From positions 75,394,001 through 75,458,000 of the forward strand of contig CM052816.1 of NCBI GenBank assembly GCA_028534125.1: 64,000 bases of DNA. The letters run 5' to 3'. Shown piece after piece: positions 55,539 through 60,575 of this stretch. The notes under the pieces are model-generated. The model ran no database searches, was not told the origin of the DNA, and saw nothing but the letters and a program-made list of their open reading frames with translations. The translations under genes were made by a program, and so were the position numbers. Positions within the stretch are counted from its first letter, which is position 1. Every line of letters begins with the position of its first letter. The stretch is from Lama glama. Its lineage: Eukaryota.

Positions 55539-55959
55539 GTGGTACTTTTTCTCACCCCCCAAGAATGTCTTGCTTCTTGTAGCATTTAGCATATTTCATT
55601 CAATGGGATGTTTTAAATTCAGTTTTTATATGTTCCAAAAGCCTGTCAGAAGCACAGAATTTGAAAAGTGTTATGTAACTGAGTCAAGAAACTGGGTTTT
55701 TGTGAATGCCAGAGCAGCTTACCACTTAGTAACTGCTTTATTTGCCCAGACTGAAAATTTAAAAGATATTCAACTTGAGTTTAGAGTTTATATTAAGCTC
55801 ATAGTAGAATAAAAACAAAATGTTAGCCTGAATTACTTTCGGAAAAATAAATAAATAAATGCTAGGAAACTTTGGCTGTCACTTATGAATAACCTAGAAA
55901 TTATTATTTCATAAGTGGATAATAAACAGACACATTTAAAAAATTACTTCTTCCCCTTC

Positions 55960-56177
55960 GGGGCTTAAGTTTCCAGCTGGGAGTGGTTTGCTCCCTAGAG
56001 GACGCTTGAAAATGTGTGGAGGAGGTTTTTGATTGTCATAATGACTGGGGACAGCCCCAGGCACTGAGGATGCACAGGCCAGAGATGCCAAATAACCCTC
56101 AGTGCATACAAGATATTCTGGCTTAACGAAGAACTGTCACATCACAACGCCAACAGCACCCCTCCTGAGAACCATTG
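55960..56177 (+). mobile_element. MER20-family hAT-Charlie element
   Basis: tttgctccctagaggac...tttttgattgtcataatgactgggg...ggccagagatgccaaa...gaagaactgtc...tgagaaccattg. Confidence 0.7.
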
Positions 56178-56541
56178 GTGTCCCTGTTCTTTACAGTTGT
56201 GACATATGGGAGATATTAGGAAATTAGAATGCATGGTTTCCTAACTTTTTGTTTTAAACAGTGCAGCCTCAGGCCAATAAAATGAACTAATTAGGAAACA
56301 GAAACTTCAGAAACTTCCTCTTCCTAAAATTATAGTTAACACCCACCGTAAGGATTGCTAATTTAAATTCTCAAGGGGTGCGCCAAGGGGTTTGCTTGGT
56401 TTTGTGTAAGGTGGTAATGTGCTGGAAATTGCCCATCTTATTATGGGAAAATAGTGAGATTACCTCAGAAAACAAAAGATTTCCTGTAATTTCAAGGGCT
56501 CAAAACTGGGACAACTGTGGAGGCTTCATAGTGTTGGACCT

Positions 56542-56826
56542 ACAGAGGCAAACTCACAGACATGGAAGGCAGACTTGTGGTTGCCGGCAGTGGGGAGTGG
56601 GGAAAGACTGGGAGTTTGAGATTTGCAGATGCTGGCTGGTAGATACAAAATGATAAACAACTGGTTTGTGCTGTGTAGCACAGGGAACCGTATTCAATAT
56701 CTTGTAGTAATCTCTGGTGAAGAAGAATATGAGAGCGAATATGTGTTTCTATGTGACTAGGGTGTGCAATGTGTTGACACAACATCGTAAACTGACTGTA
56801 CTTCAATAAAAATTATTTTTTAAAAA
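56542..56826 (+). mobile_element. Young L1 3' end with marked A>G excess
   Basis: Colinear with other L1 3' ends in the window; TSD atagtgttggacct (56528-56541) / atagtgttgaatct (56827-56840). Confidence 0.88.
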
Positions 56827-58259
56827 ATAGTGTTGAATCTGAAAAACAGAATCTAAAATTAAAGTTAGCCCTGTTAAGAGCCCAGACATCACTGCTTACA
56901 TTGATGATGGAATAAACCTAAGAGACTAGAAATCCATACATACACCAAGGCACAGAGGGTAAAATAAGCCATGTATTTAGTTCAGTCTTGGCCAATTAAA
57001 CATGTTTATCCTTTTCTTTCCTCCATTAATCAGAACTAAGTTGCATTCATGGTTTTAAAATTTCATCAAATGTTTAATTTAATGGTTTTTAATATGGACT
57101 AAGTAACTTTTTCAGGTCCATTAGAGCATTATTCCCTAAAGGCAGGAACAATTCATTACATTCTTTTTTTTTTTAAAGCTTTTAAGATGGAGCTTCTCAT
57201 CTGTGATAGTGACCCAGACTCCAGTTCTTTATTGCTGAACAATAACTCATGACTCCCTTGGTTACCCTCACTGTTTATGTTTAGACATCGTTACTTTCAT
57301 TCAATAAGTCTCTAGCTTTAAAGCCTGTTTAATATAAATAGATCCCTTGTGAATGTTCAAAAAAGTTTTTGCAAATCCTTAGGGTGAGCTTCGGTTTTAG
57401 TCCTGTATTTCTCTGTTTTCAATTTTTTGAATTATTGCTGGAAAGTAAAGAAGAGAAAAAAATTGTTTGGCTTTGAACTGAGTTTACGCTATTATGTTAC
57501 AGTCAGTTGAAATATACTTTAGTTTTGTGTTAGGAAACTCTCTGGCATTACCTTAAATTATCCTCACAACAGCCACCTGGGTTCAGTGATATTATCCCCA
57601 AACTACAGCACTGGAGTACTTGAATGACTGGAATATCTAACTTTTGGAAAGGGACAGATCTGCCTGCTAGCTTGAAGCTTTTCCAATAATAGTACATTAT
57701 CTTCCTACTTTCATTTAAATGTGATAGCTTCATATTTTATTTAATAAAAGCATTGAAGTCATGAGACTACTATAATACAGAGACCTGAACCAAAAAAAAA
57801 ACATTGAATAAGGGACAGAATCCTTCTCTAGTCCATGCAGAAAAAAGAAATTTATAAAATTTGACTTTACAGATCTCCTTTGGATATTTAGTTTCTGTAA
57901 GGTAATACAAAAATAATGGTTTTCAAATTTGTTTGAACTTTAAATCAAAATTTGGATGATATCACAAATATGTTATTGTAGAGTGACCAGAGAAATAAGC
58001 AATTTGAAGTTTTGCTTGTGACAACCATCTTTCTGGTATTTTTCTTCATTTTTTTCAGAATCACATCAAATTTTATGATTTGGTAGAAACACAGTGCTGT
58101 ATAAAAAAAAAAGTTAATGTTTATGTAAAATATTTTCCTATATAAAGTTTTGAATTTGATTTAAATGTTTTTATGCTGACAATATTAATGCATTTTTTTT
58201 AAATCATTGTATTTGTCAAAGAAAAAAAGGAGATTAAATAAATGAAAAGAGAAAAACTA

Positions 58260-59064: not shown

Positions 59065-59172
59065 AATATATGTATGTATATGTGTAACTGAACTATTATG
59101 CTGTACACCAGAAATTGACACAACATTGTAAACTGACTATACTTCAATAAGAAAAACAAAAAAGAAAAAAAA
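59065..59172 (+). mobile_element. Very short young L1 3' end with polyA
   Basis: tgctgtacaccagaaattgacacaacattgtaaactgactatacttcaataa followed by an A-rich tail. Confidence 0.85.
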
Positions 59173-60078
59173 ACTATGATACTGGCATAAAAACAGAAAC
59201 ATAGATCAGTGGAACAAAACAGAGAGCCCAGAAATAAATCCATGCTAGCACATCAATTCACCTACAACAAAGGAAGCAAGAATACACAATGGGGAAAAGA
59301 GCCTCTTCAATAAATTGTGTTGGGAAAACTGGGCCACCATGTAAAAGAATCAAACTGGATTACCTTCTCACACCATATACAAAAATAAACTCAAAATGAA
59401 TTAATGATTTAAATGTAAGACCTGGAGCCACCAAACTCCTAGAAGACAATATAGGCAGTATACAAAAGCAAAAATGAACAAATGGGATGACCTCAACCTT
59501 AAAAGCCTTTTCACAGCAGAGAAAACAATCAACAAAGTGAAAAAGCAGCCTATGGGAGAATATTTGCAAATGCTTTATCTGATAAGGGGTTAATATCCAA
59601 AATATACAAAGAACTTATACAACTCAACACAAAAAAAGTGGGCAGAGGACATTTTTCCAAAGAAGACACAGATGACCAAAAGACATGAAAAAATGTTCAG
59701 CATCACTAATCATCAGAGAAATGCAAATCAATGAGATACATCCTCATACCTGTCAGAATGGCTGTTATGAAAAAGACAACAAATAACAAGTATTGATGAG
59801 GACGTAGAGAAGAGGGAGCCCTCCTAGACTGTTGGTGGGATATAAATAAGTACATCCATTATAGAAAACAATATAGAAATTCATCAAGAAATTCAAAATA
59901 GAACTGCCATATGATCAAGCAATTTCACTTTGGGGTATTTACTTGAAGAAAAGTAAAATGCTATTTGAAAAAAAATATGCACCCCAATGTTCATAGCAGT
60001 ATTATTTAAAATAGCCAAGATATGGAAGCAACCTAAGTGTTCATCAGTAGATGAATGTATAAAGAAGATGGTATAAAC

Positions 60079-60114
<36 letters not shown>

Positions 60115-60575
60115 AAATATTAGTCAGCCATTACAAAAAAGAAATTTTGCCATTTGTGACATGAAGAATAGACCTAGAGGGTATTATGCTAAATGAAATA
60201 AATCAGACAGGGAAAGACACATACTGTATGATATCACGTATACATTGACTCTAAAAAATCAAAACAAAGCAAAATGAAAAGAGATTTATAGACAATGAGA
60301 GCAAATAGGTGGTTGCCAGTGGGGAGAGTCTGGGAGATGAGGCAAAATAGATTAAGAAGATTGAGGTGCAAACCCCAAGTTATAAAATAAATAAGCCATG
60401 GGGATGTAATATATAGCACAAGGAATATGGTCAATAATATTATAACAACTATGTATGGGGACAAATGGTTAACAGATGTAATGCAATCATTTCATAATGT
60501 ATACAAATGTCAGATTACTTCATTACTTCTGAAAATAACATAATATTGTACATCAACTATGTTTCATCAAAAAAA
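59173..60575 (+). mobile_element. Older L1 (L1MA9-like): degraded distal ORF2 and 3' UTR
   Basis: tactggcataaaaacagaaacatagatcagtggaac...agcccagaaataaatcc...ggaagcaacctaagtg...tataaaataaataagccatggggatgtaat. Confidence 0.9.

Follow-up and report, generated by a model that had tools for sequence, protein, structure and literature searches.

A truncated LINE-1 copy in the llama genome with a one-strand excess of A>G changes, a possible fossil of a hyper-edited RNA

The window analyzed here, which is the whole 64-kb stretch of Lama glama DNA, contains the 3' end of a LINE-1 (L1) element that a sequence-only reading had singled out as a candidate genomic trace of an ADAR-edited transcript. The features of this element, hereafter the focal copy, are as follows.

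56528..56541, + strand: left copy of the 14-nt target-site duplication, with G and C at 56537 and 56539, respectively, against A and T in the right copy
56542..56826, + strand: 5'-truncated LINE-1 3' end (last 285 nt), with a B-type 3' part and A-type alleles in the 5' part
56547..56735, + strand: A>G hypermutated stretch, with 20 A>G changes versus the subfamily B consensus (19 of them within 56547-56690) and 13 private sites
56572..56639, + strand: A-coincident stretch, in which subfamily A has the alleles seen here at six G sites and at 56608 (C)
56759..56773, + strand: segment with local rearrangement, some 10 nt short of the consensus length, left out of counts
56805..56810, + strand: polyadenylation signal AATAAA, within the last 50 nt, nearly unchanged
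56811..56826, + strand: AT-rich tail of subfamily B type with a short terminal A run
56827..56840, + strand: right copy of the target-site duplication

The focal copy is a LINE-1 insertion generated by target-primed reverse transcription. Specifically, a search of solved structures with the reading frame upstream of L024, a sister copy, gives LINE-1 ORF2p at E 3e-32, and the locus exhibits the hallmarks of insertion, namely 5' truncation, a poly(A) signal, an A-rich tail and a 14-nt duplication with two mismatches, the latter as the sequence-only reading had described them. A Pfam search for L1 homology with two short pieces gave no match. The LINE-1 endonuclease has the consensus target TT/AAAA, relative to which the left junction of the focal copy, TC/ATAG, is non-canonical or mutated. 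The genome contains 4979 candidate copies of this element, the best other copy being 77% identical among 40 that were scored. The locus lies 26.6 Mb from the chromosome end in sequence of 36-39% GC. The rearranged segment at 56759-56773 may be a micro-inversion with deletions, with a direct alignment with deletions being about equally plausible.

To sort the G sites of the focal copy we retrieved 101 L1 copies, which fall into 26 older (O), 27 subfamily A, 30 subfamily B and 18 unclassed copies, and removed four duplicate or outlier rows ahead of the counts. The O set was retrieved with the 8.5-kb copy of the window; likeness to the focal copy was the basis for retrieving the A and B sets, which if anything raises their A>G background. 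Among 27 scored G sites, seven (56707, 56716, 56717, 56722, 56733, 56776 and 56798) are B alleles with G in 26-30 of 30 subfamily B copies, six (56572, 56577, 56583, 56634, 56638 and 56639) are A alleles with G in 19-25 of 25 subfamily A copies, and one (56606) is partly an A allele, with G in 10 of 25 subfamily A copies. The remaining 13 sites (56547, 56548, 56564, 56568, 56569, 56631, 56635, 56663, 56668, 56670, 56675, 56690 and 56735) are private to the focal copy. The possibility that a whole subfamily shares the G alleles, which had been named as a rival to editing, is thus accepted for the seven B sites and extends to the six or seven sites that coincide with A, but is rejected for the 13 private ones. 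All three sister comparisons quoted in support of editing are present in the sequence, including a 26-nt stretch that differs from the 8.5-kb copy by six A>G changes and nothing else. However, three of these six (56572, 56577 and 56583) are alleles of subfamily A, which has hundreds of copies; a 30-nt pattern of this region has 326 genome matches with up to 3 mismatches, mostly of A type among the first 100 listed. In contrast, a genome search for copies with the same G alleles at 56663-56695 found the full set at no other locus and four other loci within 3 mismatches.

Motifs of the A-type 5' part and the B-type 3' part are joined at only two loci, one of them the focal copy and the other no closer to it than the rest, indicating that there is no subfamily with this combination. 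The focal copy is either a B copy with hypermutation or an A/B mosaic, and the block at 56572..56639 could stem from a mosaic history or from hot sites that were changed repeatedly. A heavily changed copy on C32 described below (L108) has G at 56572, at 56577 and, by alignment, at 56583 even though its middle is not of A type, which shows that these A-diagnostic sites can be hit independently. A subfamily A copy that lies about 153 kb away, oppositely oriented to the focal copy (L107, C1:75297040-75297400), has the same C at 56646, but was rejected as a conversion donor since its private changes are absent from the focal copy.

The excess of A>G changes was quantitated by strand-specific tallies with the G tract, the TA microsatellite and the rearranged segment at 56759-56773 masked, giving 227 well-aligned nt relative to the B consensus. 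Against this reference the focal copy exhibits A>G at 20 of 93 positions, T>C at 3/60, G>A at 1/40, C>T at 2/34 and four transversions, such that A>G comprises 20 of 30 changes. Sister copies have rates of 2.6-3.9% for A>G and 3.7-5.5% for T>C; the focal A>G count has a binomial p of 3e-13 at a sister rate of 2.6%, and A>G exceeds T>C with a Fisher p of 0.005. Changes other than A>G occur in the focal copy at the rate seen in sisters (10/227, or 4.4%, versus 4.7%), indicating that the focal copy is not simply older. When the reference is instead a mosaic of A at the 5' end and B at the 3' end, A>G is observed at 13 of 86 positions and comprises 13 of 22 changes, with p ranging from 4e-7 at a background of 2.6% to 3e-4 at 5%. 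At columns that are identical in the three consensuses, 12 of 77 A's are changed to G versus 3.2% in 79 sisters (p=6e-6), and T>C is seen at only 2/50 (A>G versus T>C, p=0.047). Thus the focal copy has neither a strand-symmetric weak-to-strong excess nor, with a single G>A, an APOBEC3-type sense-strand G>A excess.

The one-strand A>G excess is therefore real and persists against every reference tried, although it had been overstated: the initial count of about 20 A>G to one G>A against sisters in the window was inflated by subfamily alleles, and an excess remains without them. Since T>C and the remaining types of change do not exceed background and the excess survives removal of subfamily alleles, the two rivals that the sequence-only reading had named, GC-biased gene conversion in its symmetric form and subfamily-diagnostic sites alone, both fail to account for it. 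Two of the 79 sisters reach at least 13% A>G at invariant columns, with the value for one (L012) being partly due to misalignment (7/94 on recheck). An otherwise ordinary-looking sister (L059, C2:101290143) has A>G at 12/88 versus T>C at 1/53 at these columns, and an ordinary-looking mirror sister (L046, C12:8144293) has A>G at 2/86 versus T>C at 8/53. The L1 pieces that adjoin L059 and L046 are unaffected.

When the bases that neighbor the changed sites are analyzed relative to the B consensus, 19 of the 20 A>G sites have A or T on their 5' side and none of 20 G-preceded A's is changed (p=0.004); relative to the mosaic, 1 of 22 G-preceded A's is changed (p=0.09). Pooled over five loci, the changed fraction of A's is 55/131 (0.42) after T, 64/156 (0.41) after A, 19/94 (0.20) after C and 11/94 (0.12) after G, and the difference between G and A/T (11/94 versus 119/287) has p=4e-8. 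Later CpG decay could have lowered the class preceded by C. Backgrounds for the 5' context differed between methods and the estimate from invariant columns was adopted; the antisense-strand background is flat (p=0.47), and sense-strand A>G in ordinary sisters is about 2-fold higher after A or T. Upstream depletion of G is a mark of ADAR (PMC2873906, PMC4365171), and polymerase eta generates A>C/G changes at WA sites (PMC4686820). Depletion of 5' G is thus present in the focal copy and in the pooled loci but, given the trend in sisters, is not specific to ADAR, and the argument for editing that had been drawn from T or A as 5' neighbor is weaker than was claimed. Hyper-edited RNA also has G enriched downstream of edited sites (PMC4365171), and this is absent here: the pooled fractions are flat across 3' neighbors, A's followed by G being changed in 22 of 84 cases (26%, the lowest class) versus 29-35% for other bases, and in 2 of 14 cases in the focal copy.

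The same preference for neighbors appears in the divergence of the subfamilies. With polarity assumed from the greater divergence of the O set, the changes from the O to the A or B consensus comprise 15 A>G among 107 A's and 5 T>C among 64 T's (p=0.33), and all 15 A>G changes have A or T on their 5' side (p=0.002, or 0.04 with 5' C set aside). This is a hint that low-level editing may also have fed L1 subfamily evolution.

Analysis of the surroundings gives no indication of a regional process around the focal copy, and such a process was rejected. A>G/T>C asymmetry is absent from five further L1 3' ends of the window, among them a same-strand piece 2.2 kb downstream with A>G at 0/28, and from an older L1 at 59150-60350. 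No repeats with usable paralogues were found within 1 kb of the element, and the flanks, checked by composition, exhibit no A depletion. Downstream, a young short L1 3' end at 59065-59160 is followed in the same orientation by an older L1 of about 65-75% identity at 59168-60436, neither with an A>G excess. The focal copy shows no tendency to self-fold (z -0.26), an inverted L1 partner is missing from the 47.8 kb upstream and the 7.2 kb downstream, and our searches found no unedited source copy. Absence of a partner near the focal copy would be expected if editing took place at the source locus.

Other copies in the genome carry the same type of change at higher density. The most extreme, found via a pattern taken from the focal copy, is an L1 3' end of about 780 nt (C32:2617530-2618310, comprising L126:680-1141 and L108) in which 111 of 284 A's (39%) are changed to G versus 16 of 170 T's to C (p=9e-13). 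C>T (12/79) and T>C (11/98) are also slightly elevated in its upstream part. The copy is located 2.6 Mb from a chromosome end, its flanks have no A depletion, and comparison of an old downstream repeat with one paralogue gives no excess of A>G. Six G's follow its short A tail, and a possible diverged target-site duplication is present.

Genome-wide motif searches were performed as mirror images, in which at least 3 of 6 hot A>G or T>C changes were required. These gave 103 A>G-cluster matches versus 115 T>C-cluster matches, and 5 versus 8 distinct loci at no more than 2 mismatches, so that motif-match counts show no sense-strand A>G excess genome-wide. Among listed matches on 22 chromosomes of known length, 25 of 46 T>C matches and 17 of 55 A>G matches lie within 5 Mb of a chromosome end, relative to 10 of 42 ordinary copies and a uniform expectation of 17%. 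This subtelomeric concentration points to GC-biased gene conversion for many T>C clusters. The A>G class has an interstitial part, and much of the T>C class looks like gene-conversion background.

From the top motif loci, four of the five A>G loci and four of the eight T>C loci were retrieved. Outside the search motif, L132 (C552403:152-462) has A>G at 15/47 versus T>C at 1/21 and L133 (C26:60936234-60936544) has A>G at 17/60 versus T>C at 3/38, an A>G-specific change of about 30% of A's in both. L134 and L131 have no significant excess outside the motif, and L135 and L129 have both A>G and T>C raised. Two older-type copies, L094 (C9:21956300-21956780) and L095 (C4:48729280-48729760), have a local G-rich cluster in place of A runs of the family, with L094 not being strand-specific overall (12/80 versus 5/47). 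Given that the motif search was insensitive enough to miss the C32 copy, we would roughly estimate that there are tens of hypermutated copies.

One locus has the geometry that a paired RNA would leave. L128 (C922360:14160-14645, with L136) is T>C-specific in its own L1 sense, and is followed at its 3' end, after about 70 nt, by an L1 3' end in inverted orientation with 5 A>G and 1 T>C in its own sense; both tail-to-tail arms thus carry A>G on one strand. This is the pattern that a tail-to-tail hairpin edited as RNA would show, and it would support an origin in an RNA duplex. A paralogue, L137 (C1:61085350-61085860), has the same junction of L128 with an older L1 without a partner at that position. 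Relative to L137, the young L1 part of L128 has A>G at 16/44 and T>C at 1/70, and the adjoining older L1 has A>G at 3/30 and T>C at 8/60 (p=0.014 for the edge). The two are otherwise about 15% apart, indicating that the event is old, and 3' transduction from a lost source allele is a candidate explanation of the difference between them. Small contigs C563026 and C562879 are identical to part of the C922360 copy. Ten other inverted L1 pairs, spaced 0.2-1.3 kb, include none with one-strand A>G in both arms, the lowest p (0.036, L038) coming from one arm. A partner in place is therefore not sufficient, and in-place conversion of any inverted L1 pair was rejected.

A second locus has the opposite implication. 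L130 (C30:22226421-22226731) is a short, 5'-inverted (twin-primed) copy with a target-site duplication, 2.7 Mb from a chromosome end, in which the A>G changes of both arms and of one duplication copy all lie on one and the same genomic strand (A>G 11/50 versus T>C 1/30, small numbers that include four motif-selected sites). Had a sense RNA been edited, the changes should switch strands at the inversion point, so that L130 is contrary to RNA editing and favors a DNA-strand process for that copy.

The reading that we lean towards, and judge to be slightly on the probable side, is that the focal copy derives from an ADAR-type hyper-edited L1 RNA that was retrotransposed. In such a scheme the 3' region of an L1 transcript would pair with complementary RNA, supplied by an inverted L1 in a read-through transcript or by an antisense transcript; ADAR would hyper-edit the paired RNA from A to I; ORF2p would copy it by target-primed reverse transcription with I read as G; and a 285-nt truncated copy would be inserted with its edits fixed and would have aged at the normal rate since. 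Of the edited-transcript origin first proposed, the strand-specific A>G excess, the stronger copies elsewhere and one hairpin pair stand as observations, while we infer the enzyme, the RNA duplex for the focal copy and the dating of the changes to insertion. Editing would account for one-strand A>G clusters that reach 39% in the C32 copy, near the approximately 50% of avian retrovirus inverted repeats (PMC12925331), as well as for the A>G specificity of L132 and L133, the restriction of A>G to one strand of the L128 pair and the pooled depletion of 5' G. It is opposed by the equal abundance of mirror T>C motif matches, the strand of L130, the absence of 3' G enrichment, the absence of a partner or source for the focal copy, the comparable values of ordinary sisters L059 and L046, and cell culture data in which editing was not seen in L1 RNA (PMC5224506, PMC8677026) or in new Alu inserts. 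Overall, the case for some real hypermutation process in this L1 family is much stronger than that for any single enzyme.

A less likely explanation, but the strongest of the alternatives, is that the focal copy is a mosaic of A at the 5' end and B at the 3' end, formed by template switch or ectopic conversion, in which the remaining 12-13 A>G changes are ordinary (for example, transcription-associated) and come from the tail of an over-dispersed, strand-asymmetric mutation process, with the extreme copies elsewhere being a separate matter. All six A/B A>G differences in the 5' part and the C at 56608 match A, the A-type L107 with the same C at 56646 lies on C1 about 153 kb away, and a family of thousands of copies in which 2 of 79 sisters reach at least 13% A>G offers room for such a tail. 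However, the excess at invariant columns has p=6e-6 at the pooled rate, only two loci join the A 5' and B 3' motifs, the private changes of L107 are missing from the focal copy, and other L1s in the window have no strand bias.

Similarly unlikely is error-prone DNA synthesis, either polymerase eta-like or from a skewed dNTP pool, that misinserts G across from T in a single nascent strand, while the second strand of the insertion is being made or in later long-patch repair, and that would yield WA A>G in either L1 orientation. The 19 of 20 WA sites agree with the A>C/G changes of polymerase eta at WA (PMC4686820), and the equally numerous mirror-type matches and the tracking of the genomic strand by L130 are as such synthesis would produce. 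Not accounted for is the ending of the L128 changes at the edge of the pairable arm, and A>C and A>T are scarce, with one each in the focal copy. Single-pass error rates of polymerase eta are also below the 39% of A's that are changed over 780 nt in L108/L126.

That weak-to-strong changes were fixed after insertion by GC-biased gene conversion, at a hotspot of recombination, is improbable. In its favor, the focal copy has 25 weak-to-strong versus 3 strong-to-weak changes and two strong alleles in the left duplication copy, and both A>G and T>C are elevated in L129 and L135. Yet 8-11 T>C changes would be expected at the invariant columns if T>C were boosted like A>G (p=0.011 and 5e-4), versus the two observed; the locus is also interstitial and of modest GC content, as given above, and normal ageing would suffice for two differences in a 14-nt duplication. 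Less probable still is a sequencing or assembly artefact, for although L128, L129, L132 and L135 are on unplaced contigs, the focal copy, L108 and L133 are on chromosome-scale scaffolds, and, as a weak indication, 20 of 24 listed runs (10 studies) contain 67-88% of the sampled words of 55700-57700, with shares of 0.86-0.88 exceeding the roughly estimated 0.84 that is possible without the words of the element.

Beyond this locus, it is plausible, although we would stop short of calling it probable, that ADAR-hyper-edited L1 RNAs retrotranspose in the mammalian germ line and leave tens of A>G copies, including 3' transductions of edited inverted-L1 hairpins with one T>C arm. If true, fixed A>G L1 copies would preserve in heritable form a trace of A-to-I editing in the germ line, and would represent a path by which RNA edits become DNA changes; counting them would be feasible in any assembled mammalian genome with a reduced-alphabet scan. 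Should a DNA polymerase turn out to be the cause, germ-line strand-specific hypermutation of up to 39% per adenine would likewise call for explanation. We found no report of A>G-hypermutated genomic L1 copies in a search of mainly open-access literature, and an earlier description may exist. Published assays gave no editing in more than 2.5 kb of L1 RNA with ADAR1 or in half of the L1 RNA with ADAR2 by Sanger sequencing (PMC5224506, PMC8677026), nor across 52,039 bp of newly inserted Alu sequence, and a review calls the role of ADAR in retroelement evolution undetermined in a passage about Alu (PMC4982230).

Genomic fossils of editing are already established for APOBEC3 (G>A), and the focal copy resembles APOBEC3-edited retroelements in having a one-strand, one-type mismatch cluster relative to a subfamily consensus (PMC4866542, PMC2873906). 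It differs in that those fossils are sense-strand G>A changes from cDNA editing, mostly in LTR elements, and here the changes are A>G in an L1; in PMC4866542, non-LTR elements were left out and cluster types other than G>A were negligible in ERVs. The polymerase eta signature associated with non-canonical AID activity also includes A>G after A or T (PMC4686820), but it is somatic and sparse with many A>C changes, unlike the up to 39% of A's changed here almost all to G. A likeness to inverted-repeat hyper-edited RNA (PMC4365171) is seen in the dense A>G, the upstream G depletion and the inverted partner at C922360; however, that editing is described there in RNA only, and the llama copies lack downstream G enrichment and the focal copy lacks a partner. 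Finally, the clusters resemble those of ADAR-edited retroviruses (Rous-associated virus, avian leukosis virus and HTLV-2/STLV-3), in which A>G changes that affect near half of adenosines fall in inverted-repeat regions and have passed through reverse transcription (PMC12925331). Those viruses are exogenous and were edited in culture or infection, whereas the element described here is a non-LTR element that is fixed in a mammalian germ line.
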